A stretch of DNA of 64,000 nucleotides, taken from Myxococcota bacterium (lineage in GTDB: Bacteria > Myxococcota_A > SURF-8). The stretch spans positions 2,272,001-2,336,000 of the forward strand of contig CAXXQS010000001.1 of assembly GCA_963674735.2 (NCBI GenBank). The letters are read 5' to 3'. The notes beneath the pieces are model-generated. The model was not told where the DNA came from and did not search any database. It saw only the letters and a list, made by a program, of their open reading frames with translations. A program made the translations under genes and the position numbers. Each line of letters starts with the position of its first letter. Position 1 is the first letter of the stretch. Below are positions 4,946 to 58,142 of the stretch, one piece after another.

Positions 4946-5875
4946 ATGCCCCCGGAATTCACCCCCCAAAATCTATACGGCTGGCCGGGATTGGTCGCCA
5001 ATCTCGGACCGCTCAGTATCGGCTTGGCCCCGGACATCGGCGGCCGCATCATTTCGTTGACCTATGAAGGCAAAGAATTGCTCTTCGTACAAAAAGAACA
5101 TGCGGGAGAAACCTTCGATTTCAGTCAGGTTTCCGATCTCGACGCCGAAAAGCGCCGTCTCGGCTTCCGTCTGTGGGGCGGCGACAAGACCTGGGTAGCC
5201 CCACAGGAAGCCTGGACCGAAGCCATGCCGCCTTTGGAATTGGACGCCGGGCGCTATTCCTGCACACATGAAGGTCTCCAGGCTGTCATGACCAGCCCCG
5301 TCTGCCACGAAACCGGGCTACGCATCAGCCGAGAAGTGTGCTTAGCTGACGATGGCACCATAGAACTATGCCAGACTTTCCACAATGCGACCGATACGCC
5401 GGTCACGCGCGGCATCTGGGACGTCACCCAGGCATTGCGGCCCTTCGACGTCTATTTTCCTTGTAAAAAAGAAGACTTACGTCCATATCCGCAGGAAGGC
5501 GATTCCGTCGTATTGGCGGATCAATTGTTGGAAGAAGTCGAGGGCTGGACGCGCCTACCCTGCCGCGAGGCCGCCCACTTCAAGTTCGGTGCCCGGCTCG
5601 ATAAAGGCATGTTGATCGCCCTGCGACCGGTTAAAAACGGCATGCTGATCTTCGGCCGCCGTTTCCGGGTCGATCCGGAGGGACACTACCTGCACGGGGC
5701 CAACGCCGAAGTCTACAACAGCCCCAACATGAACTACCTGGAAATCGAAGTTCACGGACCCAGCCGAACCCTTTCGCCCGGTGAAAAGCTGCAACATATC
5801 CAGAAATGGAAAATCGGCCGTTCCCCCCGGATTCTAACTCCGACGGAAGCGGCCGACTTGTTGTTCGAAGCTTAG
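4946..5875 (+). CDS. DUF4380 / aldose-epimerase-like beta-sandwich protein
   Basis: PDIGGRIISL, WGGDKTWVAPQ and YLEIEVHGP motifs; AAGGAG RBS before the ATG at 4946. Confidence 0.65.
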   Translation: MPPEFTPQNLYGWPGLVANLGPLSIGLAPDIGGRIISLTYEGKELLFVQKEHAGETFDFSQVSDLDAEKRRLGFRLWGGDKTWVAPQEAWTEAMPPLELDAGRYSCTHEGLQAVMTSPVCHETGLRISREVCLADDGTIELCQTFHNATDTPVTRGIWDVTQALRPFDVYFPCKKEDLRPYPQEGDSVVLADQLLEEVEGWTRLPCREAAHFKFGARLDKGMLIALRPVKNGMLIFGRRFRVDPEGHYLHGANAEVYNSPNMNYLEIEVHGPSRTLSPGEKLQHIQKWKIGRSPRILTPTEAADLLFEA

Positions 5876-5885
5876 CGGACGGACG

Positions 5886-6923
5886 TTAGCCGAACAGCTT
5901 GTCCATCTCGATGTGTTGCTTGACCATCTCTTCGAGAATAATCACTTTCTCGGGGTCTTCGGTGGTCAGTAGCGGCTGCATGTGGTTCACGCTCATGGCC
6001 ACGGCATAGGTGTCCTTGGCGGTGAGCAGCAGCGGGATCTTCTTCTCGTTGAATTTCGAGATGATGTTGGGGGGAGGCAGAATGTTGTTGGTCAGGATCA
6101 CCGCCGACGCCTCGCCCTCGATCGCCAGAAGCAGCATGTCAGTGCGGTCACCGGCCGTGATGATGAGCTTGTTCTCCTTCTGGAACAGCGGATTGCGCAT
6201 CGCCGCATCGGCCGACATCGCGCCGACGAACACATTCTGCACCTTGTTGCCCAGACGGCTTTCGCCCGACAACACCTTCGGCATAAGCTTTTCGGCCACG
6301 CGCGAAACCGTCAGGCTGGTCAGCTCGGCGTTGAAGGGGATCGCACCCATCACCGGCACACCGATGTTGCGCAGCTCGGGCAGGGTGGACTCGTTGAAGT
6401 CATCGAGGTTGGGGATCTTGTTGACGATCACGCCCGCCAGTTCGACGTCGTACACTTCGAGGAACTTCTTCAGGATGGCGGCGTCGTCGAGCACCAGGTT
6501 TTCGTCGCCGTTGATCACGCACACCATCTTCGCGCCCAAGGTTTTGGCCATCCCGATGGGATCCATGAAAACCGAGCAACCGTAGGAAAAATCTTTGCCG
6601 CTTTCAACAAACAGAACCTCGCGGCCTTCTTCCAGTTTGGTCGCCATGGCGTTCATTTTGTCGGCGATACCCTGCTGATCGTACATATACCGCAGTTTGG
6701 CCTGCTCGAAGCCGATGGTGATGTCCTGGGCTTCTTCTTTGAGCCCGAACAGCGACACCAGCAGCGCCGAGTCGTGATCCCACAACTGCTTTTTCTTGTA
6801 CATCAGGCGATCGCCCAGGGGCTTCATATACCCGAAGGGTTTTCCCAGCGCCTTGGCCATACCGACCACCAGGCTGGTTTTTCCACTATTTCGTCGTACC
6901 GATGTAATTACCACTCTAGCCAT
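5886..6923 (-). CDS. AAA_26 + DRTGG domain (phosphotransacetylase N-terminal-like) protein
   Basis: NSGKT P-loop, GYMKPLG, and ITAGDRTD (DRTGG-type) motifs. Confidence 0.85.
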   Translation of the reverse strand: MARVVITSVRRNSGKTSLVVGMAKALGKPFGYMKPLGDRLMYKKKQLWDHDSALLVSLFGLKEEAQDITIGFEQAKLRYMYDQQGIADKMNAMATKLEEGREVLFVESGKDFSYGCSVFMDPIGMAKTLGAKMVCVINGDENLVLDDAAILKKFLEVYDVELAGVIVNKIPNLDDFNESTLPELRNIGVPVMGAIPFNAELTSLTVSRVAEKLMPKVLSGESRLGNKVQNVFVGAMSADAAMRNPLFQKENKLIITAGDRTDMLLLAIEGEASAVILTNNILPPPNIISKFNEKKIPLLLTAKDTYAVAMSVNHMQPLLTTEDPEKVIILEEMVKQHIEMDKLFG

Positions 6924-6926
6924 CTC

Positions 6927-9056
6927 TCACTCCTTCGGATTAGCAATGAGGATTCGTGCATCCAATGCCAAACAACCTTCACCCTGCTCATACGCTACGA
7001 GCGGGTTGATTTCGATATCCGTGATGTCCTCACACAATTGAATCAAGGCCCCGACCTTCAGAAGCGATTCGTGAATGGTCTGGATGTCCTTGGGCGCTTC
7101 ACCGCGAACGCCCAGCAGCAGGGGATACGAGCGGATCTCGCTGATCATGTCGTTGACTTCACGCTTCGTAATCGGCAGGCTGCGGAACGCCACGTCCTTC
7201 ATGACTTCAACGTAAATACCACCCAGTCCGAACATCAGAATCGGACCGAAAACACTGTCGCGGCGCGCACCGATGATCGTTTCGACACCCGGCTTCACCA
7301 TCTTGGCGATTTCGATGCCGTCGATCTTCGCGCTGCGGTCGTACTGGCGGCAGTTGTGCATGATCGCCTGATAGGCGTCGAGCACTTCCTCTTTATTGAG
7401 CAGGTCCAAGGCCACACCGCCCGCATCCGACTTATGCAGGATGTCGCGCGAGACGACCTTCATGACCACCGGGTAGCCGATTTCCTCGGCGTATTCGACG
7501 GCCTGTTTCAGGTTTTTGGCGATTCTGGATTCCGGAACCGGGATCCCGGCCGCCCGCATCATGTCCTGCGCTTCGGGAGCGAGCAGGAAGTTACGGCTGT
7601 CCTTGCGCACGCCCGCCACGATTTTGCGCACCGCCTCGATGTCGATTTGGTCTTTCATCAGATCGCGGGCATAGGCTTGATTCTTTGCACGCTTGCGATA
7701 GGCATGGGTGAAGTACAGGGCACCCATCACACTCACCGCTTCGTACACGTCATTGTAAACCGGCACACCCTTTTTACGCAGGGCATCGGCCGTACGCACC
7801 AGTTCCTCGCCGCCGAACAGCGAGAAGACGACGGGCTTTTTGCCTTCGTAAACGCGATATTTCTCTTCGATGGCCTGGGCCAGCTCGCGTTCATCCATGG
7901 TGGCCGTTTCGCAGTAAAGCGAAATGCAGGAATGAAAGTCCTCGTAATCGAAGGACGCCTGCAAGGCCTTTTTGTAATCCTCACCCGAGGCGGCGCCGGT
8001 GATATCGATGGGGTTTTTCACCGAGCCGAGTTCGGGAGTGGCGTTTCTGAATTTTTCGACCAGCACTTCGGCATCGTCGTACAGCTTGATGCCGTATTTT
8101 TCGCAGGCGTCGGTCGCCATAACGCCGATGCCGCCACCGTTGGTCACGATCGTGCAGTTCTCGCCGTCGAGAGGCGGGCTTTCGGCCAGGAAGGTGGCCC
8201 AGTTAAAGGCCTCCTGGATGCTCTCGGCCCGCAACACGCCGCATTGACGCATGATCGAATCGAAGATTTCGTCCGAGCCCGCCAGCGAACCGGTATGCGA
8301 GGCCACAGCCACCGCACCGCGTTTGGAACGACCGGACTTGATCACCACCACCGGCTTGCGAACGGTGGCGCGTTTCAGGGTCTCCACGAAACGCACGCCG
8401 TCTTTGACGCCTTCGATGTACATCAGGATGGTTTTGGTCTGCGGGTCGTCCACCAGATAATCCAGCAGATCCGACTCGTCGATGTCGGCTTTGTTGCCCA
8501 CCGAAACAATGGCGGAGAGCCCGATGTTTTCGGCGGCGGTTTTACCGATCATCGCAATACCGATGGCGCCGCTCTGCGTTACGATGGCCACATGCCCCGG
8601 GCAAATCTTGCCCGCCGAGAAAGTGGCGTTCATCTTGCTGTGGGCCACGTAGATTCCGAAGATGTTCGGACCCAGGATGCGAGTTCCGCGTTCTTTCGCG
8701 TACTCGGCAATTTTGTGTTCTTCTTCCGCGTTGCCGACTTCGGAAAATCCCGAAGTGATAATGGCAACGTTCCCCACGCCCTTATCCGCACAGTCCTTCA
8801 CCGCATCGAAGACATACTGAGACGGAACGGCAATGCAAGCCAGGTCGATCGGGACTTCAATGTCACGAACGGATTTGACCGACGGGTGCCCGAGCACCTC
8901 GCCGCCACGGGGGTTGACCGGGTAGATCCCGCCCTCGTAACCGCTTGTGACAATGTTCTGAACCAGCCGATAGCCAATCTTTGCTGGGTTCGTTGAAGCG
9001 CCGACAACTGCCACATTCCGAGGCTCGAATAGCAACTTGATGTTCGACTCCATCAC
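6927..9056 (-). CDS. Acetate/acyl-CoA ligase (ADP-forming), fused alpha+beta
   Basis: VAVVGAS, GPNIFG, SHTGSLAG (phospho-His), TNGGG and HKSDAGGV ATP-grasp motifs. Confidence 0.92.
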   Translation of the reverse strand: MMESNIKLLFEPRNVAVVGASTNPAKIGYRLVQNIVTSGYEGGIYPVNPRGGEVLGHPSVKSVRDIEVPIDLACIAVPSQYVFDAVKDCADKGVGNVAIITSGFSEVGNAEEEHKIAEYAKERGTRILGPNIFGIYVAHSKMNATFSAGKICPGHVAIVTQSGAIGIAMIGKTAAENIGLSAIVSVGNKADIDESDLLDYLVDDPQTKTILMYIEGVKDGVRFVETLKRATVRKPVVVIKSGRSKRGAVAVASHTGSLAGSDEIFDSIMRQCGVLRAESIQEAFNWATFLAESPPLDGENCTIVTNGGGIGVMATDACEKYGIKLYDDAEVLVEKFRNATPELGSVKNPIDITGAASGEDYKKALQASFDYEDFHSCISLYCETATMDERELAQAIEEKYRVYEGKKPVVFSLFGGEELVRTADALRKKGVPVYNDVYEAVSVMGALYFTHAYRKRAKNQAYARDLMKDQIDIEAVRKIVAGVRKDSRNFLLAPEAQDMMRAAGIPVPESRIAKNLKQAVEYAEEIGYPVVMKVVSRDILHKSDAGGVALDLLNKEEVLDAYQAIMHNCRQYDRSAKIDGIEIAKMVKPGVETIIGARRDSVFGPILMFGLGGIYVEVMKDVAFRSLPITKREVNDMISEIRSYPLLLGVRGEAPKDIQTIHESLLKVGALIQLCEDITDIEINPLVAYEQGEGCLALDARILIANPKE

Positions 9057-46458: not shown

Positions 46459-49317
46459 ATGTTAAAAAAGATTTCAGAAGCCATTTTCGGCACTCAGCAC
46501 GAGCGCGAGATCAAGCGCTTGCAGCCGTATGTCGATCAGATCAACGGTCTGGAAGACGGCATCAAAGCCAAGTCGGACGACGAACTGCGTGCGCGCATCG
46601 GTGAATTTCGCCAACAGGTCGAAAACGCGGTCAAAGGCTACAGCGACCATGCCGATCGCCGCAAACGCGAAGAAGATATCCTCGCAACCCTGTTGCCGGA
46701 AACCTTCGCCATCGTGCGCGAAGCCGGTATCCGCAGCCTGGGTATGCGCCACTACGACGTCCAGCTCATCGGCGGCATGGTCCTTCACGGCGGCCGCATC
46801 TCCGAGATGCGCACCGGTGAAGGTAAAACCCTGGTCGCCACCCTGCCCTTGGTACTCAACGCCCTTACCGGGCGCGGCGTGCATTTGGTCACGGTCAACG
46901 ATTACCTGGCCCGACGCGACTCGGAATGGATGGGACGCATCTACAAATACCTGGGATTTTCGGTGGGGCTGGTGGTGCACGGGATCAACACCCGCAAACG
47001 CCGCGAGTCTTACGCCAGCGACATCCTGTACGGAACCAACAACGAGTTCGGGTTCGACTACCTGCGCGACAACATGAAGTTCCGCCTCTCCGATTACGTC
47101 CAACGCGACCTGCATTATGCCATCGTGGATGAGGTCGATTCCATCCTGATCGACGAAGCCCGTACCCCGTTGATCATCTCCGGCCAGGCCGAAGACTCGA
47201 CCGAGAAATACAATCAGGTCAATGCCGTCATCAAAAACCTGGTCAAGCTCGGTTTGACGGAAGGCCGAAAACGCGCCGCCAAGGCCGATGTTTCCATCGA
47301 AGAAGTCGTGGAAAAAGAAGGCGGCCTGCGGGCCATCGCCTCGCAGCTCAAAGGCCGCAAGAAGAAAGACCTCGCGGGCGACTACTATTTCTTCACCATC
47401 GACGAGAAGGGCCGCAACATCATCTTGTCGGATGAGGGCGTGGCCTGGGTGGAAGAGCATTTCAACGTGGAGAACCTCTACGAACCGCAGAATATCGAAC
47501 TGCTGCACCACGTCAATCAGGGTTTACGCGCCCACCTGCTGTACCGCGTCGAGCAGGAATACATCGTCAAGGACGATAAGGTGGTCATCGTCGACGAATT
47601 CACCGGCCGCCTTATGCCCGGCCGCCGCTGGTCCGACGGGTTGCATCAGGCCGTGGAAGCCAAAGAAGGCGTCCAGATCCAGAACGAAAACCAGACACTG
47701 GCCTCCATCACCTTCCAGAACTTCTTCCGCATGTACGACAAGCTGGCCGGTATGACCGGTACGGCGGAAACCGAGGCCAACGAATTCAAGCAGATCTACG
47801 GGCTCAACGTCGCGGTGATTCCCACCGACAAACCCATGATCCGCCAAGATCACACCGATATGGTGTACCGCACGGTCAAAGAAAAATACACATCCGTGGT
47901 GGAAGAGATTGCCGAAGTCAGCAAACGAGGACAGCCGGTGCTGGTGGGCACGATCAGCATCGAGAATTCGGAAAAACTCTCACGCATGCTCAAGCGCCGG
48001 GGCGTCAAGCACAACGTACTCAACGCCAAGTTCCATGAAAAAGAAGCGGAAATCGTCGCCCAAGCCGGCCGCAAAGGCGCGGTCACGATCGCAACCAACA
48101 TGGCGGGTCGCGGTACCGATATCGTCTTGGGCGGCAACCCCGAATTCATGGCCTGGCAACAAGTCGGCACCGATGCCGAGCTGGATGAATTCCAGGCGGC
48201 TCTCGATGAGTACACCAAGAAATGCAAGGCGGAAAAGGAATTCGTGCTCGAAGCGGGCGGCCTGCACATTCTCGGTACCGAACGCCACGAATCGCGCCGC
48301 ATCGACAACCAGTTGCGTGGCCGTTCGGGACGCCAGGGCGATCCCGGAAGTTCACGTTTTTACCTGTCGCTCGAAGATGATCTGATGCGCATCTTCGGTG
48401 GCGAGCGGATCATGGCCATCATGAACCGCTTGGGGATCGAAGAGGGACAGGTTATTCAGCACGGCATGATCACCCGCGCCATCGAGAAATCGCAGATGCG
48501 TGTGGAAGCGCACAACTTCGATATCCGCAAAAACCTGCTCGATTACGATACCGTGATGAACGAGCAACGGACCGTTACCTACCGCACGCGCCGCGAAATT
48601 CTCGAAGGCACGGAACAAGAAGAACGCGCGCTCACCGCCATCGAAGACGTGGTGATCTCCATCGTCGGCGAAACCTGCCAGGGAACGGCCGAAAAATGGG
48701 AGATCGACCGCCTGCTCGATAGTATCAAACATTACTTCAATATGGATTACGACCTGGAGTTCGATCCCAAAAGCGCCCCGCCGCTGGAGAAGCTTCAGGA
48801 AAACATCTACTTCGCCGCCGAAAAAGAATATCGGGAAAAGGTGAAGAATATCGCCGCCCTGTTCAACGACGACGGCGACAACTGGCGGCGCATGGAACGC
48901 GAGCTGCATCTCCAGATTCTCGACAAACACTGGCGCGAGCACCTGTTGCAAATGGATCACCTGAAAGAAGGCATCAGCCTGCGCGGCTATGGTTCGCGCG
49001 ATCCCAAGCAGGAATACAAAAAAGAAGGCTTTGCCATGTTCGAGGATTTGCTTGACCGCATTTCCTTCGAATTCATCCAATACGTCTTCCGTATCCAGAT
49101 CCAGGCCGAAGAAGAACTGACGCGCCTGCGCGAAAAGCAGGAAGCCGAACAAGAACGCCGTCGCATGACCTACGAACGCGGCGAGTCTCGTAAAAAGCCG
49201 GAAACCGTCCAACGCACCGTGCAGAAGATCGGTCGCAACGACCCCTGCCCCTGCGGGTCGGGTAAGAAATTCAAAAAATGCCATTGGGGCCAGGCCGGCT
49301 TCGAACGGTTTATGTAA
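46459..49317 (+). CDS. secA: Preprotein translocase ATPase SecA
   Basis: [42 protein letters not shown] and [22 protein letters not shown] motifs. Confidence 0.98.
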
Positions 49318-49327
49318 GGAGCGATCC

Positions 49328-50101
49328 ATGGATCAGCCCACCCTTCCCCCTCTCTCGTATTTTTACCGCTACCTGTGGGAAGATCCCGAGCTTATGGTGG
49401 TGGTCGGCGACGCCGGGGAACTGTTTCGCGGAATGGATATCTATAACCGCCATTTCGGCATCGCTCCGGTTGACGACGCCGACGCCCGTGATTTCAAACG
49501 CCTGCTGACGGCGGCGGGGCTGGCGGCGGTTTCCTTGAGCGATCGCGAAAGCTGGGGCTGGAATCTCAGCCTGCCCGACCGACAGATGGGGTTTTTCGTG
49601 GCAGCCGAACCGGAAGGCATGTTATGCGGTTGTCTCCATCCCACCACGCGTAAGCAACAACTCGGTTTCGTCCAGCGCCAGAAAGCCGGTGAGGACCTGA
49701 CCCAGAGTCACTTCACCCCGCAGGGCTCCGACGTCGTTCACGCCGTCGAACGCTATTTCGTCGAATGCGAACAGGTGCAGGTGCGCGTCGCCGCCAATGA
49801 ACAAGGCCTAGGTGCATTGGTGCGCGCCATGCCGGGCGGTCGGCTGGACGAATTGGCCTCTCTTTCCGATGACGAACTGATCGAACGCTGCCGCAAACTG
49901 GCCAAAGACGGCGAAATGAAGGGAATGGGCGAGGTTTTGTTGTTTTACGAATGCCGTTGCGACGACGAGATGATCCTCAGCATGATCACGAACCTGCCCG
50001 CCGACCAGCGCGAAGAACTGTGGCGCGGTCAAGATGCGTTGCACATCGAATGCCCCCGCTGCGGACGCGGCTATACCATGAAAAAGCAGGGATTGAATTA
50101 G
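49328..50101 (+). CDS. hslO: Hsp33-family redox chaperone (divergent)
   Basis: C-terminal ECRC...CPRC zinc motif and RYFVECEQ segment. Confidence 0.75.
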   Translation: MDQPTLPPLSYFYRYLWEDPELMVVVGDAGELFRGMDIYNRHFGIAPVDDADARDFKRLLTAAGLAAVSLSDRESWGWNLSLPDRQMGFFVAAEPEGMLCGCLHPTTRKQQLGFVQRQKAGEDLTQSHFTPQGSDVVHAVERYFVECEQVQVRVAANEQGLGALVRAMPGGRLDELASLSDDELIERCRKLAKDGEMKGMGEVLLFYECRCDDEMILSMITNLPADQREELWRGQDALHIECPRCGRGYTMKKQGLN

Positions 50102-50108
50102 GAAGCGG

Positions 50109-50225
50109 TCAGCGTTTCTTGCGAGGTTTGCTCGGCTCTCCTTCCCCGCGCAGACTGATAAGCACCACGCCGGTGAGAGAGAAGAAAAACGCAATTGCCG
50201 CCAATAGCTGGATCCACGTGGACAT
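50109..50225 (-). CDS. 38-aa single-TM small protein
   Basis: MSTWIQLLAAIAFFFSLTGVVLISLRGEGEPSKPRKKR, with a strong AAAGGAG RBS; absent from the ORF track. Confidence 0.6.
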   Translation of the reverse strand: MSTWIQLLAAIAFFFSLTGVVLISLRGEGEPSKPRKKR

Positions 50226-50502
50226 GATAGGCCACTCCTTTCCCCTCTTGTCTAGCGCGTTGGATGAAGCAGGTCAAGTTATTAACCCAACCCGCGGTTT
50301 CCTTGTATACTGCTCTCCCGAGTGATTCCACGAAACGAAATCATATAGAAGGCTCCCTCGATACGCCGTTTGTCAAACGGCAACACGGAGATGAACGTTT
50401 TCTGTAGCTTTCATTGGGAGAGCTTGCTTTTAGAACATAGCGGATGACAACTTATCCGAGCTACTCCTTTACAGCTCCAGCGAATAATTTCACACGGGAC
50501 AA

Positions 50503-50532
50503 TTGACTTTCGCCGCTAATCGTTTTAATAAT
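50503..50532 (+). promoter_or_regulatory. Sigma70-like promoter upstream of the tmRNA-like gene
   Basis: TTGACT followed 17 nt later by TAATAAT. Confidence 0.5.
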
Positions 50533-50556
50533 AACATGATTACGGTTCTATGGCAT

Positions 50557-50677
50557 GGGGGCGACAGGGCTTCGACGGGGTGCAGCTATCGCCTGGATAT
50601 AGATACATTCTTCAGATAGCTAGCCTGACGTTGCGCCGCACAAGCGGTGTTAGGTTCGATTCCCCCCGCCTCCACCA
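50557..50677 (+). ncRNA. Miniature or internally deleted tmRNA-like gene (tRNA-like ends only)
   Basis: 5' GGGGGCGACAGGGCTTCGACGGGG and 3' GGTTCGATTCCCCCCGCCTCCACCA. They form a 7-bp acceptor stem with a G3-U wobble and encoded ACCA. Only 121 nt long; T-stem only 2 bp. Confidence 0.75.
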
Positions 50678-50781
50678 TTTTATGTTTATGATTTCAACAA
50701 CTTATGACTCTCACCTAGAAGCAGTGCCCAAATAGTGCCTAACTAAATTTGATGTTATCCTGCATGGAGGTCACTTTAATA

Positions 50782-51444
50782 ATGACATCTAAAAGCAATA
50801 TTTGGGTCGCTTCAATAGTTTGTTTTGTTATTACTTTGGCGATATATATTTCTTTGAATGGCTATCTAAATACAAAATACCCTAATGATAAATGGGCTAC
50901 GGCCATTCTTGAAATAGTGTCTTCGCTTGGTGTATATACCATAATTTTTCATCTGTACTTGTTTATCTACGAGAAGTACCTATTTGTAATGATTGATAAA
51001 AGATTTGACATGACAGGCGAGTGGTTTCAGGTATTTATCATTAAGAACCCCGCAGATGGGGTGGCATCAATTCGTCACGGTTATTGTTCGATTAAAGCTT
51101 CACCTAATGGAATAAATCTTTCGGCAGAGAATTATAGACCTGATGACACCTTTAGTTCAAACTGGCAGTCGGAAGTCACTACCATTATTAACAATCAACT
51201 ATATGTAATGTTTGTGTCACAGGGCAACAGGCCCACAAACCCAATAACAAGAGGAACAATGGTTTTTAATATTCATGGGTGTCCTCCAAATCGGCTAATT
51301 GGTACTTTTAATGATTCAACACCTGCAACCCATTCGGGAGAAATCCGTATATTTCGTGAGTATGATGAATATTGTCAATACTTAAATAGTTTTCAGGTCG
51401 ATGGGGTTCCAGATATACCTAGCAGGCTAGATCAAGGCGAATGA
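50782..51444 (+). CDS. 2-TM + beta-rich protein resembling Cap15/SMODS-associating 2TM-beta effectors
   Basis: Two N-terminal TM helices, DMTGEW after TM2, beta-strand-rich C-terminus ending LIGTF...SGEIRIFR; GGAGG RBS; AT-rich. Confidence 0.6.
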   Translation: MTSKSNIWVASIVCFVITLAIYISLNGYLNTKYPNDKWATAILEIVSSLGVYTIIFHLYLFIYEKYLFVMIDKRFDMTGEWFQVFIIKNPADGVASIRHGYCSIKASPNGINLSAENYRPDDTFSSNWQSEVTTIINNQLYVMFVSQGNRPTNPITRGTMVFNIHGCPPNRLIGTFNDSTPATHSGEIRIFREYDEYCQYLNSFQVDGVPDIPSRLDQGE

Positions 51445-51445
51445 T

Positions 51446-52027
51446 ATGTATTTTTTTGAATATGCAAAGAGTTTTCTCTACAGGATGCTATTGAAAAGAA
51501 AGCATACCTTTATAAATCCTACCGCAATAATACTTAATGTAAAAAAAATAGATATCGGTTCCAACGTGATAGTGGGCAGACATGCTTTTATTAGGGGAGG
51601 TCAAGATCCGTCAAGCCATCTTAAAATTGGTGATAATGTAGTAATTAGAATGAATACGTACTTAAGTTCCAGGCATGGGGATCTATCCATCGGTAAAAAC
51701 ACCTATTTTGCTCACTCCTGTTGGCTTGGAGGGCAAGGAACCACAACCATCGGAATGAACTGCTTGTTTGGTCCTAATGTTGTGTCAATCTCTTCCAACC
51801 ATGATTATAATAATATTTCAACTCCCTATCACAAAGGGGATGAACTTCCAGGTGTAATCACAATTGGGGATAATGTATGGATTGGAGCAAATGCAGTAAT
51901 ATTACCCAATGTAAAAATAGGAAATGGAGCAGTTATCGGTGCCGGATCTGTAGTAACCAGTGATGTACCAGCGAGAACTCTTTTTGTTGGTAACCCAGCT
52001 ATATTCCAGAAAAATCTACGTTCCTAA
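51446..52027 (+). CDS. Left-handed beta-helix (hexapeptide) acyltransferase
   Basis: IGDNV repeats, SSNHD, IGDNVWIGANAVILPNVKIG and GAGSVVTSDVP...GNPA motifs. Confidence 0.92.
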   Translation: MYFFEYAKSFLYRMLLKRKHTFINPTAIILNVKKIDIGSNVIVGRHAFIRGGQDPSSHLKIGDNVVIRMNTYLSSRHGDLSIGKNTYFAHSCWLGGQGTTTIGMNCLFGPNVVSISSNHDYNNISTPYHKGDELPGVITIGDNVWIGANAVILPNVKIGNGAVIGAGSVVTSDVPARTLFVGNPAIFQKNLRS

Positions 52028-52179
52028 TTGCAGTTTAATAGTCCTTGAGAGACCCGTTTTTTCAATGGGTAAAGGCTGTTAACTATATTATACGAAATTC
52101 ACCCATCCAACCCCTTGACCGCATCCCGTTTGACCTCCGGGGCCAAGTGCATGTACCGCATTGTAGCCGGGTAGCGACG

Positions 52180-52206
52180 TGGAGCCCGTCGGAGACGCGC
52201 TCCAAC
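52180..52206 (-). repeat. REP-like palindrome abutting the right direct repeat
   Basis: Minus strand reads GTTGGAGCGCGTCTCCGACGGGCTCCA. Confidence 0.8.
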
Positions 52207-52270
52207 ACGATTTCATGAAATGAAATCGCATCGAAGGCTGCCTCGATACGCCGTTTAACCGGATTCCCAT

Positions 52271-52298
52271 TTGACAGACAGCCCCCAGGCGCTAAGAT
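52271..52298 (+). promoter_or_regulatory. Sigma70-like promoter
   Basis: TTGACA-N16-TAAGAT. Confidence 0.5.
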
Positions 52299-52341
52299 AG
52301 GGCCCGATTCCGATGTGGATTTCCGGAGGAAGAAAGCGATC

Positions 52342-53121
52342 ATGTCCAAACCGATCTATCGTCACTGCAGCCTGCGCTTCTTCGACCGCGATTGGGAGCA
52401 TCACCGCGCCGCCCAAGCCCCCCTGGAACTCGTCCTGCACGGCGATGAGTTGGATGCCTGGCGCACTAACGGCGCGCTGGAGGCCATTCGCCGTCTCAAA
52501 GCGGATTACAACCCGCCGCTGTCGCTGCACGGTCCGGTTTTCGGCTTCGATCCGGCCTCCCATGATAAAGGTCTGGCCGCCCTCACCGAGAAACGCGCCC
52601 TGCTGGCTCTGGAAGCCGCCGAGGAAATGCAGGCCGAGGTAATCGTTTTCCATTCCAGTTTCAATTACCTCGCCTACGGTTTCGAACGCGACTACTGGCG
52701 CGAAACCAGCAGCGCCTTCTATCTGCGCCTGCTGGAACAGCTCCCGCCCGAACGCCGGATCGTCGTCGAGAACATCCACGAAGTCGAACCGACCCCCCTG
52801 GCGTCTCTGGTACATGGGATCGACGATGCGCGCCTGGGCCACTGCTTCGATGTGGGTCATTTCAATATGTTCTGCAAAACCGTCGACATGGCCGACTGGC
52901 TGGCCGCCTTCGCCGGTCGCTTGGGCCACATCCATCTGCACGACAATCAGGGACGTGAAGACCTGCACCACCCGCCGGGGACGGGCACGATCGATTATAC
53001 GCCCCTGCTAAAAGTTCTCAAGACCGCCCCCGAACCTTGGTCGGTGACGGTGGAATGCAAGAATACCGCCGACAACGATCAGGCGGTAGCCTGGACGACA
53101 GAATACCTGCCCCTAGGCTAA
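52342..53121 (+). CDS. Xylose isomerase-like/AP endonuclease 2 TIM-barrel protein
   Basis: SLHGP, VVENI, FDVGH, HIHLHDN, DLH and GTID motifs. Confidence 0.88.
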   Translation: MSKPIYRHCSLRFFDRDWEHHRAAQAPLELVLHGDELDAWRTNGALEAIRRLKADYNPPLSLHGPVFGFDPASHDKGLAALTEKRALLALEAAEEMQAEVIVFHSSFNYLAYGFERDYWRETSSAFYLRLLEQLPPERRIVVENIHEVEPTPLASLVHGIDDARLGHCFDVGHFNMFCKTVDMADWLAAFAGRLGHIHLHDNQGREDLHHPPGTGTIDYTPLLKVLKTAPEPWSVTVECKNTADNDQAVAWTTEYLPLG

Positions 53122-53302: not shown

Positions 53303-53411
53303 TTGAACTAAGAGCATGTTGACGAGACAACAAATGAGTCAGGATGTATTGACAATGAAAACCGAACACCCTACAAACAAATTATATGTGAGTTGTGAAA
53401 GGAGGTCTGTG

Positions 53412-55532
53412 ATGACCCGTTCGATGTATTGGCTGTGTCTGCTGGCCATCCCCCTGATGCTGTTTGGCTGCTGGGAAGTCAGTCTGGGCGACAGCGATCC
53501 CGATAACACGGATCAAGATCCGAAATTGGAGAAATTCGACACCAGCGGCTGCAAAGGCTATGAGGAAGACGCCCCGGCGGCAAAGCTCAACGACTCCGAT
53601 TCGGCCTTGCCCAACCCCGAGGGCAACCCCATCCAGGCCATTGCGCATGATACGTCCATCACCATCATCCATCACAATGCGTACTACCAGTGCGGCGCGG
53701 AAATGAGCTTCAAGCTGACCGCCGATGGCCGGGATCTGAAGCTGAATGAGATCGATAACGCGAGCATGGTTACCGATTGCATGTGCTACATGGATCTGCA
53801 GACCGACATCACCGGTCTCGTCCCCCAAACCACCTATCACGTGGAAGTGTGGGATGAATTCGGCGACATCCTGTTCGGCGAAGTGGACGTCACCGTCGGC
53901 GAGTGCGACGACACATGCGTCTTCGACCGCGATTGCCGGGATCTCGATTTACCGCATCCCGAATGCGGAGGCGACTGGGCCTGCATGGAAGGCAGCTGCG
54001 AATGGATCTGCGACAGCGACCCCATCGCTTGTTCCAGCGACTACGACTGCCCCGCCGACTACGAGTGTGTGTGGTACGATCAGGCCCAGCCGAGCACACC
54101 CGACGAAAACGGTGCGGATATGCCGGCGATGATGTGCGAAGTGGATTCGGATTGCCCGGAAGGCCAGCAATGCGCCCTGGTCGACTGCGCCGAGGGCTAC
54201 GACTGTGAACCCTACGGCGTCTGCATGGGAGACGATCCCTGGTACGGCGAAGGCATATGCGAACCGCGACAAGTCGAGTGTTACACCGATGAGGACTGCT
54301 ACGAATACGATTGGATGCCCGGTCCTTGCCTGGGCGGCACTTACGTAGCCTGTGAAAACAACCAATGCGTCTTCGATTGCTTCGATGAGGAATGCCGCAG
54401 CGATTACGATTGCCCGAACGGCTCCCACTGCGAGTTCTACGACGTTTATCCCGATGAACCGGGCTACCCCGAAGGTGGCGGCGAAACCGGCATTCCACTC
54501 GAATGCGCTTCGGACGCCGATTGCCCCGAAGGTCTGTGGTGCGAATTGATGGACTGCGGTCCCAACGAAGACTGCTATCCCTACGGCATGTGCGTGGGCG
54601 GCGATCCGTGGCCGACCGAAGGCGTGTGTGTGCCCGACAGCCAACCGGAGTGCTGGGAGGATGCGGATTGCCCCAGCGGCTATCATTGTGAATACAGCGA
54701 TATACCCGTGCCGGGCGACGATGGAACCACGGATCCCACCGCGGATGAAGCTCCCGATATGCCACCGCCCTACGGCATCTGCGTCGCCGATGACCCGTCC
54801 TTCATCTGCTGGGATCTGGGAGGCGAATGCTTCCCGCTGACCGCCGACGGCGCCATGTGTCCGCCGGGATGGCAACTGGCCGATATGCTCTATGGCGTGG
54901 AACCGCTATGCGGAGTCGGCGGTGCATGCTGCATGCCGATCGAAATGGAATGCGACAGCAACGCCGATTGCGCCTATGGCGAAGTGTGTGTAAACGGGTT
55001 GTGCCAGGGTTCCTGCAACTGCGACGATGTCTACGAACCGGTTTGCGGCTACGACGGTCGAACCTACCCCAACGCCTGCGAAGCCGCCTGCGACGGCGTT
55101 CGAATCCTGCACCACGGCGCGTGCGCTGAAGGCTGCGTCTGCCCGGAATACTTCGCCCCCGTCTGCGGCACGAATGGCAAGACCTACGACAACGAATGCT
55201 TCGCCGAATGCGATAATGTGGCGATTCTTCACCAAGGTTTCTGCGACGATCCGCAGTACGAATGCAGCAGTGATCTCGATTGCCCGAATGGCTTCATCTG
55301 CGACCCCTGCCCGCCCTATCCGGGCTGCCCCGAATGCGACGCCTGCGGTCCGGCCGTCTGTGTCCCGGGAAATGATCCCAGCTGCGAGGATTTCGGCGGC
55401 TTCTGCATCGGCCTTTACCCCGGTTCTCAATGCCCCGACGGCTACACGGTGCCGCAGGTGACGGTGGTCCTGTGCGGCGACGGCGGCATGTGCTGCGCCC
55501 CGATCACGGAGGATGGCGAACTTCCCGATTAA
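53412..55532 (+). CDS. Cys-rich acidic lipoprotein with two Kazal domains and CxxDxDCP repeats
   Basis: LFGC lipobox; CDDVYEPVCGYDGRTYPNAC and CPEYFAPVCGTNGKTYDNEC Kazal motifs; AGGAGG RBS. Confidence 0.85.
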   Translation: MTRSMYWLCLLAIPLMLFGCWEVSLGDSDPDNTDQDPKLEKFDTSGCKGYEEDAPAAKLNDSDSALPNPEGNPIQAIAHDTSITIIHHNAYYQCGAEMSFKLTADGRDLKLNEIDNASMVTDCMCYMDLQTDITGLVPQTTYHVEVWDEFGDILFGEVDVTVGECDDTCVFDRDCRDLDLPHPECGGDWACMEGSCEWICDSDPIACSSDYDCPADYECVWYDQAQPSTPDENGADMPAMMCEVDSDCPEGQQCALVDCAEGYDCEPYGVCMGDDPWYGEGICEPRQVECYTDEDCYEYDWMPGPCLGGTYVACENNQCVFDCFDEECRSDYDCPNGSHCEFYDVYPDEPGYPEGGGETGIPLECASDADCPEGLWCELMDCGPNEDCYPYGMCVGGDPWPTEGVCVPDSQPECWEDADCPSGYHCEYSDIPVPGDDGTTDPTADEAPDMPPPYGICVADDPSFICWDLGGECFPLTADGAMCPPGWQLADMLYGVEPLCGVGGACCMPIEMECDSNADCAYGEVCVNGLCQGSCNCDDVYEPVCGYDGRTYPNACEAACDGVRILHHGACAEGCVCPEYFAPVCGTNGKTYDNECFAECDNVAILHQGFCDDPQYECSSDLDCPNGFICDPCPPYPGCPECDACGPAVCVPGNDPSCEDFGGFCIGLYPGSQCPDGYTVPQVTVVLCGDGGMCCAPITEDGELPD

Positions 55533-55823: not shown

Positions 55824-58142
55824 TCAGTAAAGGCACATCGTGTTGTAGCAGATCTGAATTCTCGCTTCGGGAGGCGGCAACACCGATTGGTCGAAAATGA
55901 TGGAGTTCGACACCGCGTCGTATTGCCAATCCATGACCATGGTGCCGTTGACAAAAACCGACATCGTGTTCGGATCGGCCAGTCGCGACAGGAAATACTG
56001 GCTTCTCGATGCGAAGAGGTAGCTGATGAAGTTATCGAAAAACGCATCGTAACTCGATTCACAGATCGAATAGAAGTGAACCTCGTTTCGCTGGTTACAG
56101 GCATCCGCCACACCGATCAATCGAGACGCTGCCGATGCGGACGTGCCGCCACTCCCGCCTTCGCAGCCGTTTGGAAGATCGCCCGCCAGCGCGTAGACCT
56201 CCAGCATATGGAGATTATGCATCCCCTTGATACTGCGAAAGAAATCGATGTAGAAGTCACTGGTTGCCATCGATTGGTCGTCTTCGTCCGACACGAACAC
56301 GATCATCAATTTGGCATCGTCACGCAAAAATCCCGTATTTGAACCGCTGAGAAGCGGCTCGCTGAGGGCCCGATAGGCGGCATCCAGCGGCGCTTCCTGC
56401 TCACCTTCGCAGGTCGCCCCCAAATCATCGATGCGATTGTTAAAGGCTTGAATCAGCTGTTCGTCGGTCAACGCGTCGGGACCATCGGTGGCCAGAACCG
56501 CCGGTGTCCCAAGAAGATGTCCGCTATGTGCGGGATTTTCCACGTCACAGGAGGTCACGCCGATATGGAAATCGCCGTCGTCTTCGGTCAGATTCTCGAT
56601 GAAATCCGCGAACGCCTCCACCAGCCGCTCGCGTTCCTCCGTCATCGATCCCGAACAATCCACCACAAACAGCACATCCGCCATCGGCTCGGACAAGGTG
56701 CGATATTCGTCGCAAACCGAAAATCTTTCAACACCTTTCGCCTTTACCGTGGCGGAGTATTGCCCCTGTCCGTCGCCTAAACCGATCACGACTTGCCCCC
56801 AGTGCTCTCCAAGCGTCGACGGACAATGGCGCAATGAAAACGAGAAGTGATCGGGATTGTCGCCGCCGATATCGACAGGCAAAGAAGGCAAATCAGACAG
56901 CTCGAATTGTTGGGACTCGGTTCCCGTAACCTCGATCGATTGTACCGTCACCGGTAAATTGCCGGTGTTGTAGAAGGATATCTGTTTGGGGCGAGTGCAA
57001 CATTGCACCGTCACATCGACGAAATCGAGGTTCGATGGCAGAAGCTCAATCCCATAACCGCCCCCTGAACCATAAAGCCCCACAATCGCCGAACCATCGA
57101 TTGAAAACGGAATATCGTCCGTCTGCCAACTCGACAACTGGGCGTTGGATGCGATATGCAAGGCAGCGGCGTAGGCCACCCCCTCGTCGCTCGGAGAGAA
57201 CGTTACATCGAGGATCAGCTGCTCATTGCGTTCCAGGGTATAGTCGCCCATCGTACCGGGAGCGGACGTAAATACGCTGCCTGTCTGAAGTGGAAGAACG
57301 TAAAACAGGCCGGCATCCATGATTTCCAGGTTCAAAGGATCATCCCCGCAATTGGAAATGAGAATTTCACGGCTTTCCGCAGTTCCGGCCTTGATGGTAC
57401 CGAAGTTGAGACCCGGCCCCGGCTGCACACCCATGACTCCCATCAAACCATCCTGCGGCTCAACACCCAGGCAAGGCGGAAGATGCTCGCGCGTACGCAA
57501 AACAAGGTCCATCCGGCTTTCGCGCTGATAGGCGTCTCCATCGTTCCACGCAATATCGATGCGACCCACCAGATTCTGATTCAATCCGTGTACGCCTTCG
57601 ATTGCACCTCCGCTCACCGAAACGGAGACGGATTCATTTTCACCTAACTTCAACGGAAGCTGATCGATCGGAGCGTTTGCCCATTTAAAGGCTCCGTCGG
57701 CATCATTGGAAAGCGTAATCGAAGTGATGAATAAATCGGCCCCCCCCTGATTCTTTAAGACAAACGACTTCGTTTCCACAACATCCAGCGGCAGGGATCC
57801 GAAACTCAAAACCGCAGGGTCCAGCAGCAGAGACGGCAGGCACTTGTCGCACTCATCTGAATCGCCGTCGGGCAACGTATCGCCGTCGGGCAACGTATCG
57901 CCATCGGGCAACAAGGTATCGCCATCGGGCAACAAGGTATCGCCATCGGTTTCATCGCCATCGGGAGCGTCGCCATCGGAAGCATCGCCGTCGGGAGCGT
58001 CGCCGTCGGGTTCGTCGCCGTCGGGTTCGTCGCCGTCGGGTTCGTCGCCGTCAGCGAAGCCACTTTCGATCATCGACGTGCAGGATAGCCCCATGCATGC
58101 CAACACAAGCAGGACAGTCAGAATGATCGATCCATTTCTCAT
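55824..58142 (-). CDS. Lipoprotein: DGD repeats, three Ig-like (ASH/choice-of-anchor D) domains, VWA domain
   Basis: GLSC lipobox; LSFG/LNFG/LDF...NxG Ig-like units; DVLFVVDCSGSM MIDAS; FVSDEDD. Confidence 0.85.
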   Translation of the reverse strand: MRNGSIILTVLLVLACMGLSCTSMIESGFADGDEPDGDEPDGDEPDGDAPDGDASDGDAPDGDETDGDTLLPDGDTLLPDGDTLPDGDTLPDGDSDECDKCLPSLLLDPAVLSFGSLPLDVVETKSFVLKNQGGADLFITSITLSNDADGAFKWANAPIDQLPLKLGENESVSVSVSGGAIEGVHGLNQNLVGRIDIAWNDGDAYQRESRMDLVLRTREHLPPCLGVEPQDGLMGVMGVQPGPGLNFGTIKAGTAESREILISNCGDDPLNLEIMDAGLFYVLPLQTGSVFTSAPGTMGDYTLERNEQLILDVTFSPSDEGVAYAAALHIASNAQLSSWQTDDIPFSIDGSAIVGLYGSGGGYGIELLPSNLDFVDVTVQCCTRPKQISFYNTGNLPVTVQSIEVTGTESQQFELSDLPSLPVDIGGDNPDHFSFSLRHCPSTLGEHWGQVVIGLGDGQGQYSATVKAKGVERFSVCDEYRTLSEPMADVLFVVDCSGSMTEERERLVEAFADFIENLTEDDGDFHIGVTSCDVENPAHSGHLLGTPAVLATDGPDALTDEQLIQAFNNRIDDLGATCEGEQEAPLDAAYRALSEPLLSGSNTGFLRDDAKLMIVFVSDEDDQSMATSDFYIDFFRSIKGMHNLHMLEVYALAGDLPNGCEGGSGGTSASAASRLIGVADACNQRNEVHFYSICESSYDAFFDNFISYLFASRSQYFLSRLADPNTMSVFVNGTMVMDWQYDAVSNSIIFDQSVLPPPEARIQICYNTMCLY
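57863..58052 (-). repeat. Coding DGD repeats (15-, 21- and 18-bp units)
   Basis: DGDEP x3, DGDAP, DGDTLLP x2, DGDTLP x2. Confidence 0.9.

Follow-up and report, generated by a model that had tools for sequence, protein, structure and literature searches.

We describe here a pair of adjacent genes, ORF1 and ORF2, that lie in a short AT-rich stretch (approximately positions 50650-52150) of a 64,000-nucleotide segment of a Myxococcota genome, referred to below as the window. The G+C content of this stretch is 0.34-0.42 in 300-nt intervals across 50650-52149, and that of the flanks is 0.56-0.63 (49300-50199 and 52150-53049). ORF1 (50782-51444, + strand; 220 amino acids) encodes a protein with two transmembrane (TM) segments and a β-barrel that is predicted to be a membrane-disrupting effector, and ORF2 (51446-52027, + strand; 193 amino acids) encodes a putative hexapeptide (left-handed β-helix, LbH) acetyltransferase of the sugar O-acetyltransferase type. 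Upstream on the same strand are a promoter-like site (50503-50532), a sequence resembling transfer-messenger RNA (tmRNA; 50557-50677) and a block of about 65 nt that follows its CCA end (50678-50742); downstream, on the - strand, lie the last 21 codons and the stop codon of a tyrosine integrase (52099-52164). A sequence-only reading of this DNA had described a single AT-rich island carrying a promoter, a tmRNA-like gene, a 2TM/β-rich gene and an acyltransferase, all on the + strand, and each of these elements was found in its place. The same reading had remarked that the island holds no nucleotide cyclase, and it was right: the AT-rich stretch has space for ORF1 and ORF2 only, so that no room is left for one.

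The start codon of ORF1 is taken as the ATG at 50782, which is preceded by GGAGG 11 nt upstream; the longest frame begins at a TTG at 50749. A HMMER search of 1.84 billion representative proteins returned 83 at E <= 1e-3, the query included, of which 41 fall at <= 1e-10 and 13 at <= 1e-30, and nearly all are 190-250 amino acids long. Ten of ten sampled relatives were metagenomic proteins in singleton or two-member clusters, mostly from short contigs. The family alignment used below holds 59 of the 83 proteins; the other 24 were left out as fragments, partial matches or the weakest hits (rows P0017, 31, 40, 45, 52, 54, 59, 60, 62, 63, 64, 67, 68, 70, 71, 74, 75, 77, 79, 80, 81, 83, 84 and 85). 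One of these, P0071, was rejected as a spurious member, being an Ig-repeat protein. Another, the distant relative P0074 (311 amino acids, E 9e-5 to ORF1), has a TIR domain (TIR_2, 1.8e-13) after the barrel, and its N-terminus may be cut. No longer or fused forms of the family were found, which is weak evidence. Five residues are invariant in the 59-sequence alignment (W81, G158, G174, D178 and G186). Given this alignment, AlphaFold2 models ORF1 at a pLDDT of 92.4 as two helices (residues 2-32 and 37-71), eight strands and a C-terminal helix. Both N-terminal helices are hydrophobic and modelled at pLDDT >90, and basic residues follow TM2.

The similarity of ORF1 to Cap15 and other S-2TMβ proteins, which the sequence-only reading had proposed and for which it had asked for a structural comparison, was borne out by fold, by profile-profile comparison and by the hidden Markov models (HMMs) of a defence library. 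When Foldseek hits were re-aligned with VIA, the receptor domain of Yersinia Cap15 (7N34) came out on top, with a Z score of 13.8 and a root-mean-square deviation of 2.4 Å over 102 residues of the 108-residue chain, at 17% identity (Foldseek TM score 0.75 on the target). De novo designed eight-stranded barrels tie with it (Z 13.4-13.5), and lipocalin-like and polyisoprenoid-binding barrels match at Z 9-10. Because of this tie the fold alone is generic, and we therefore assembled a canonical comparison set by searching for PF18153 (Cap15_CD_rec) in 401 genomes of the phylum, nine of which, the genome of the window not among them, contain it. Profile-profile alignment (hhalign) of the 59-sequence ORF1 family with the nine canonical proteins gave a probability of 96% and E 4.7e-9 over 142 columns that cover TM2 and the entire barrel. 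In the ESM Atlas the nearest clusters to ORF1 carry PF18153 (score 0.97). The PADLOC models for the CBASS (cyclic oligonucleotide-based antiphage signalling system) "2TM effector" match 14 of the 59 family members, the best at E 9.4e-10; ORF1 itself has marginal matches to these models only (E 0.054 and 0.058).

Cap15 (PF18153 together with PF23471, Cap15_TM; structures 7N34 and 7N35) and ORF1 thus agree in their two N-terminal TM helices, in the size of a minimal barrel of eight strands, in landmark residues (G-x-W, Gly and Asp) and in having aromatic side chains at both presumed pocket positions. ORF1 differs in having no Pfam match, in its low identity to the Cap15 chain (~17%) and in carrying Phe where Cap15 has the presumed pocket tyrosines. 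All nine canonical proteins have tyrosine at two aligned positions that in ORF1 are occupied by F144 and F176. Across the family the first of these positions is Tyr in 42 and Phe in 17 sequences, and the second is Phe in 27, Trp in 21, Tyr in 10 and Cys in one, so that aromatic residues fill 59/59 and 58/59 of them, respectively. Conserved pocket tyrosines matter for the ligand response of other 2TMβ proteins, according to section 7 of PMC13692257, and we assume from the alignment that the two positions are the same ones. Judged from its profiles and its predicted fold, ORF1 is a divergent member of the S-2TMβ (Cap15/OptE/PanE) superfamily and a predicted membrane-disrupting effector. As three reports describe, 2TMβ effectors combine a two-pass membrane anchor with a ligand-binding barrel and kill by oligomerising and disrupting the membrane (PMC12657218, PMC13640721, PMC13692257). 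By analogy with Cap15, OptE, PanE and the Cas13b-linked 2TMβ protein, ORF1 should likewise oligomerise and disrupt the inner membrane, governed by a small ligand bound in the pocket of the barrel.

ORF2 begins 1 nt past the stop codon of ORF1, a spacing consistent with translational coupling. The hexapeptide acyltransferase predicted at this position was confirmed by the Hexapep model PF00132 (E 2.3e-21) and by conservation of the catalytic residue, His119, which all 21 aligned homologues share. Its best solved relatives are SACOL2570 (3FTT, 7e-21) and the LacA galactoside acetyltransferase (1KQA, 1e-17), with the catalytic His aligned. The best NCBIfam models for ORF2 are those of WcaF, NeuD/PglB/VioB and the maltose and galactoside O-acetyltransferases, all below their cut-offs; indeed, all 25 of the 25 models listed fall short, the best being a WcaF subfamily at 77.7 bits against a required 192. 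The closest database relatives are 45% and 40% identical, after which scores drop to the generic LbH level. We found no sensor or regulatory domain in ORF2, which consists of the LbH domain and a short N-terminal stretch. The sugar and xenobiotic LbH O-acetyltransferases (WcaF, maltose/galactoside, Vat/CatB) are like it in their hexapeptide repeats, catalytic His and C-terminal motif, whereas ORF2 reaches no NCBIfam cut-off and is paired with a 2TMβ gene. By homology, ORF2 is an acetyl-coenzyme A (acetyl-CoA)-dependent LbH O-acetyltransferase of a small subfamily of its own that travels with the 2TMβ gene.

The linkage of the two genes extends well beyond the window. A search with ORF1 alone led to five other loci, four on metagenome contigs and one on the Gordonia terrae plasmid CP049837.1, and in all five a homologue of ORF2 lies directly downstream on the same strand, overlapping the ORF1 homologue or separated from it by no more than about 6 nt. 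This answers in the affirmative whether the effector gene recurrently neighbours an LbH acyltransferase, a check proposed with the sequence-only reading. In the metagenome loci the proteins are 38-42% (ORF1) and 40-45% (ORF2) identical to those of the window; the Gordonia proteins are 25% and 34% identical, respectively, and the ORF1 homologue is unannotated in the plasmid record. Across the six loci, the pairwise identities of the two proteins rise and fall together (r = 0.88 for 15 pairs of loci that are not independent of one another). The surroundings differ from locus to locus and include an HNH endonuclease, a histidine kinase, a DUF559/REase (restriction endonuclease)-like gene and copies of tRNA-Leu, and in the four metagenome contigs the G+C content of the pair is below that of nearly all flanking ORFs. 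As controls, no ORF2-like gene was found in the nine canonical Cap15 loci (~3.3 kb fetched for each, ~2 kb for one), nor any ORF1-family gene within 3 kb in 12 viral contigs that carry a generic LbH gene.

The ORF1 family was present in one of 401 genomes of the phylum (none of the other 400 at E <= 1e-5) and in one of 72,556 plasmid records. Searches of phage records, genome contigs (with P0044 as a further query) and viral contigs gave no further contexts, nor did plasmid searches with the Gordonia protein, which retrieved itself only, with P0044 or with P0057. On the strength of these comparisons the linkage between ORF1 and ORF2 is specific and conserved, and the pair is a rare, self-contained and mobile two-gene cassette. 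In one of the metagenome loci, a 63-kb contig (L038), two low-scoring tRNA-Leu(AAG) copies (78-146 and 1432-1502) precede the pair by about 1.2 kb and could be a further tRNA-linked insertion site.

Some of the settings in which the pair occurs are defence-like. The Gordonia pair (locus 4951-8047) is wedged between the type IV genes csf2 (Cas7, 4.9e-78) and csf3 (Cas5, 6.6e-96), and defence-type neighbours elsewhere are the HNH endonuclease and the DUF559/REase-like gene. The expectation that homologues would sit near defence islands thus held in some loci, namely those with the type IV cas operon and the HNH/REase-like flanks, and these contexts may reflect an association with defence. No cyclase or CD-NTase (cGAS/DncV-like nucleotidyltransferase)-like gene was detected among the flanking ORFs scanned in the six loci, and no transporter or polysaccharide gene adjoins the pair in any of them. 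At the canonical Cap15 loci, four of five tested upstream ORFs of about 300 amino acids match NTP_transf_2 or SMODS, weakly. Two of these canonical loci of the phylum also contain proteins with DACNG and DACNH domains (CdaG-like; L042 2016-3359 and L044 2-1330). The one in L042 adjoins nucleotidyltransferase-like and 2TMβ genes, as in an arrangement reported in PMC13640721.

2TMβ effectors have the character of a reusable kill switch that has been wired to CD-NTases in CBASS, to minimal CRISPR polymerases (mCpol) in Panoptes, to minimal diadenylate cyclases (DAC) in PanDA and to Cas13b. The pair described here can be compared with each. In CBASS the effector accompanies a CD-NTase, whereas none was found adjacent to the pair and the partner is an acetyltransferase. 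Panoptes (OptS, an mCpol, with OptE) and PanDA (PanS, a minimal DAC, with PanE) are closer in plan, since they too join a minimal, sensor-less enzyme to a 2TMβ effector in a two-gene operon. Their enzymes, however, are nucleotide cyclases whose products are cyclic dinucleotides, and they are encoded first, whereas here the effector gene comes first and the enzyme is an LbH acetyltransferase; no mCpol or DAC is encoded with the pair, whose only conserved partner is the acetyltransferase. A type VI-B Cas13b system with an accessory 2TMβ protein obtains its ligand without a cyclase, from tRNA-derived 2',3'-cyclic-phosphate messengers released when Cas13 cleaves RNA (PMC13692257). No nuclease gene was seen in the flanks examined for the pair, and the tRNA-like relic does not recur with it. 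We infer that the module works like Panoptes/PanDA or CBASS and belongs to none of them, because the cyclase that defines them is missing and ORF1 does not match the Pfam model. As far as sequence comparison goes, the pair is best called the addition of a new class of partner enzyme to 2TMβ-effector systems. We found no report pairing a 2TMβ or Cap15 protein with an acetyltransferase in a literature search that lay outside subscription journals and supplementary files.

How might such a pair operate? We give about even chances to its being a defence module under small-molecule control. ORF2 takes the position held in other 2TMβ systems by a nucleotide cyclase or nuclease. We propose that ORF2 makes, or destroys, a ligand that gates ORF1, and the pair would then be an abortive-infection (anti-phage) switch. 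Within this defence reading we favour, tentatively, an inverse form of signalling, because ORF2 is a bare catalytic domain without a sensor, as are the minimal cyclases in Panoptes and PanDA. According to the reports on those systems, OptE and PanE are held off by the product of a minimal constitutive cyclase and fire when phage sponges remove the ligand (PMC12657218, PMC13640721). By analogy, ORF2 would use acetyl-CoA to make an acetylated small molecule constitutively, and this molecule would fill the ORF1 pocket and keep ORF1 monomeric and off. Infection would then remove the ligand by depletion, sequestration, hydrolysis or loss of the enzyme, and the freed ORF1 would oligomerise and permeabilise the inner membrane. 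A more specific and doubtful conjecture is that the barrel reads an O-acetylated metabolite (e.g. a nucleotide bearing an acetyl group, or a compound that resembles ADP-ribose or derives from CoA) as an alarm or as a decoy that is made constitutively and signals "all is well", the LbH enzyme having replaced the cyclase or nuclease. If the pair does work in this manner, an acetyl-CoA-dependent partner would add a different chemistry to 2TMβ systems, and O-acetylated metabolites would join the immune messengers of bacteria as a chemically new class. The question of whether acetylated metabolites serve as immune signals or decoys is thereby made testable.

Several points weigh against the reading of the pair as a ligand-controlled defence module, in addition to the designed barrels that tie with Cap15. 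ORF1 has no Pfam match at E <= 0.1, PF18153 included; that model matched one of the 59 relatives, at E 0.0093, and the family HMM retrieved no Cap15 chain from the PDB at E <= 10. Both presumed pocket tyrosine positions are Phe in ORF1 itself. The linkage was read from six loci (the window and five others) out of about 80 family representatives, and the Gordonia LbH protein scores 94 bits against the partner profile, a value within the range of generic LbH proteins (84-102 bits). PADLOC-DB v2 is without a model for ORF2, and we know of no LbH enzyme that makes a nucleotide-derived signal. The SMODS model PF18144 found no match at E <= 0.01 in the whole genome of the window, which is 94% complete, and this model is insensitive, giving the cyclase-like neighbours of canonical Cap15 only E ~6e-4, so that the genome may encode a divergent cyclase at another site. 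Finally, all 2TMβ ligands named in the consulted parts of PMC12657218, PMC13640721 and PMC13692257 are nucleotide-derived.

The same evidence of linkage and fold could serve an activating logic of the CBASS type, in which ORF2 would be silent until infection and its acetylated product would then bind the barrel and trigger killing by ORF1. There is precedent for it, in that Cap15 and the Cas13b-linked 2TMβ protein are switched on by ligands, as described in PMC12657218 and PMC13692257. The enzyme itself is harder to accommodate: with 193 amino acids and no sensor or regulatory domain found, its being switched on by infection is hard to explain. We consider this activating variant of the defence reading rather unlikely in absolute terms, though nearly as likely as the inverse model. 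Direct acetylation of ORF1 by ORF2 accounts for a small remainder. Prediction of a complex between ORF2 and the ORF1 barrel (residues 70-206) scored 0.00 twice against a mark of 0.32 and allows no verdict.

Defence is not the only use to which a barrel and an acetyltransferase could be put. A membrane-anchored, lipocalin-like barrel might bind a sugar, lipid or xenobiotic that the LbH enzyme O-acetylates, for detoxification or modification of the envelope, as with the maltose/galactoside or Vat/CatB-type enzymes. The best characterised relatives of ORF2 are indeed sugar and xenobiotic O-acetyltransferases, the similarity of the barrel to lipocalin-like and polyisoprenoid-binding proteins fits such a role, and resistance cassettes are also mobile and plasmid-borne. 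The profile-profile homology, however, is specific to S-2TMβ effectors and includes the transmembrane hairpin, and CBASS effector HMMs recognise members of the family. The positions of the pair within a type IV cas operon, and in a slot whose sister copy (described below) holds an Abi-like gene, also speak for immunity, and the lack of transporter or polysaccharide genes beside it in the six loci argues against this alternative. We regard a non-immune function as unlikely.

The two genes might also simply stabilise mobile elements by addiction, in a toxin-antitoxin-like manner: ORF1 would be the toxin and ORF2 an enzymatic antitoxin acetylating ORF1 or its activator, with no dedicated anti-phage role. 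The tight spacing or overlap of the genes in all six loci, their presence on a plasmid and on islands and the co-divergence of the proteins would all be expected of such a pair. Its rarity in the phylum and among plasmid records counts against it, and to our knowledge no LbH enzyme acetylates proteins. It also overlaps with the inverse-signalling model, from which it is hard to separate by sequence. We judge addiction to be improbable.

The remaining question is how the cassette came to lie beside a tmRNA-like sequence. Rfam model RF00023 matches 50557-50677 at 30.1 bits (E 1.4e-9), below its gathering score of 47, and ARAGORN calls no tmRNA or tRNA gene in the whole window. The genome has its own tmRNA (C1:607260-607611; 203.4 bits with RF00023), to which the short copy aligns in three blocks of 86-100% identity: the 5' 25 nt (the acceptor half), a central piece of some 50-80 nt, and the T loop together with the 3' acceptor-ACCA end. 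The match is not due to chance, since these blocks are so nearly identical to the genome's own tmRNA. In this alignment the short copy lacks the tag reading frame together with the pseudoknot regions that flank it, and two of five T-stem pairs are left (three are marked as non-canonical by cmscan); the acceptor stem, of 7 bp and with G3:U70, has survived whole, as has the ACCA end. Homology to the ssrA locus does not stop at the RNA: it takes in some 60 nt of promoter sequence before it and some 65 nt past the CCA, at 84-89% identity. The 65-nt block, which also follows the CCA end at the genuine ssrA, is 89% identical to C1:607195-607284 and 82% identical in relative G002. In 40 relatives, none of the same genus, matches are limited to the tmRNA 3' end and the block downstream of it. 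From these alignments the short tmRNA-like sequence is a decayed copy of the junction at the genome's own ssrA integration site, a pseudogene. The tmRNA-like gene of the sequence-only reading thus stands as a sequence, through Rfam and its homology to the genome's own tmRNA, and falls as a working gene.

The promoter of the earlier reading was located as TTGACT-18-AATAAT (10/12 matches). A promoter scan is weak by itself here, with 11 sites against 5.2 +/- 2.4 in shuffled sequences, but this site aligns with the genuine ssrA promoter, of which it is a homologue. A scan of the + strand between 50533 and 50782 found nothing resembling a terminator, and because none precedes ORF1, the ssrA-type promoter may drive the cassette, or whatever cargo fills the slot.

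Genomic islands target tmRNA genes (ssrA). At the genuine ssrA of this genome the gene is followed by the 65-nt block, AT-rich cargo and a convergent tyrosine integrase; the cargo is a 541-residue gene with DUF4062 and HAD domains, and the integrase has 354 residues (Phage_integrase, 7.4e-30). The integrase tail in the window is identical in 18 of 20 residues to residues 333-352 of this ssrA-linked enzyme and includes what we take to be the catalytic-Tyr motif. Because of this match, ORF1 and ORF2 fill the slot between the post-ssrA block, its left border, and the stop codon of the integrase, its right border. We found neither an intact integrase (21 codons being all that is present) nor att repeats specific to the island. 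A direct repeat of 48 nt and 85% identity (50324-50371 and 52209-52256) brackets the island, and we considered it as an att site or target duplication and rejected it. It belongs to a dispersed intergenic "A" element of 50-90 nt with about 15 copies across the genome (the left copy in the window spans 50317-50400), often found near a "B" hairpin with about 45 copies; a 28-nt, GC-rich B hairpin (52181-52208) directly precedes the right A copy (52209-52256). The two repeat families may be REP-like or MITE-like. As a member of a dispersed family the 48-nt repeat is no evidence of specific insertion. With so little of the integrase remaining and the flanking repeat dispersed, the element in the window is a relic, and by its homologies the AT-rich stretch is the decayed end of a tmRNA-targeting integrative island. 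The suggestion that the RNA might be merely the integration site has therefore been upheld by the ssrA-junction homology and the integrase tail, and the tmRNA relic is ordinary island biology.

A second, more decayed relic at C1:379150-380567 (minus strand) makes the same point. It and the copy in the window have the same 240-nt upstream region (86% identity) and the same two deletions within the tmRNA, and their right borders, with the same truncation of the integrase and then the hairpin repeat, are 90% identical. What is left of the tmRNA in the second copy, about 87 nt, has A3 for G3, has lost about 34 nt more and has a destroyed T loop, and it gives no Rfam match at E <= 0.1. The slot of this sister copy holds a protein of 294 amino acids with an AbiJ_NTD4 domain (3.8e-28) that belongs to the PADLOC candidate defence family PDC-S32 (5.9e-103). 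Our guess is that two relics with the same borders and unrelated cargo arose by replacement of the cassette between the flanks or by copying between repeats. In relatives, integrase fragments lie near tmRNA 3' fragments and other cargo follows the 65-nt block. Repeats of the tmRNA 3' end also occur at C1:575498-575520 and C1:519966-519986, with an integrase of 50% identity beside the first; these repeats and the second integrase show tandem islands at the real ssrA. The relic in the window resembles ssrA islands in its tmRNA-derived end, its integrase end, its foreign composition and its defence-type cargo. It differs in keeping the ssrA 5' end and promoter beside the 3' repeat, with two internal deletions, and in lying far from ssrA, in two copies with different cargo between the same borders.

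The sequence-only reading had entertained the RNA as part of a three-part module, and it was rejected as a component: the five other loci with the pair contain no tmRNA-like sequence (Rfam, E <= 0.1), and in this genome it recurs beside unrelated cargo. That the short RNA is nonetheless a working part, whether as a tRNA-like substrate, as the source of an RNA-derived ligand for the barrel or as a tag-less tmRNA, would draw on its intact acceptor stem and ACCA end, the consensus-like promoter upstream and the ability of 2TMβ proteins to respond to tRNA cleavage products (PMC13692257), but this reading is largely refuted and very improbable, given its absence from the other pair loci, the broken T stem and missing tag and pseudoknot regions, the further decay of the sister copy, the full tmRNA elsewhere in the genome and the 5' part and deletion junctions, which are matched in none of the 40 relatives. 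A tRNA-like RNA beside a defence gene, it should be cautioned, can be a mere integration scar. Our best overall reading, which we hold to be balanced between right and wrong, is that a tmRNA-targeting island has decayed here to a relic and that the two genes it carries form an abortive-infection module in which the partner enzyme is new.

Around these elements, the island at the genuine ssrA (C1:590000-608000) carries, after the DUF4062/HAD cargo and the 354-residue integrase, two further ORFs. Read by eye, one of 212 amino acids resembles a serine recombinase/resolvase, and the other, of 775 amino acids with a YGDD motif, resembles a reverse transcriptase. In the window, the AT-rich stretch is flanked by genes for Hsp33 (49328-50101) and a xylose-isomerase-like TIM-barrel protein (52342-53121). 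Farther downstream are a cysteine-rich protein of 738 amino acids with repeated C-x-x-C-rich modules (53316-55532, + strand) and a protein of 772 amino acids with Asp-Gly-Asp-rich repeats near its N-terminus (55824-58142, - strand).

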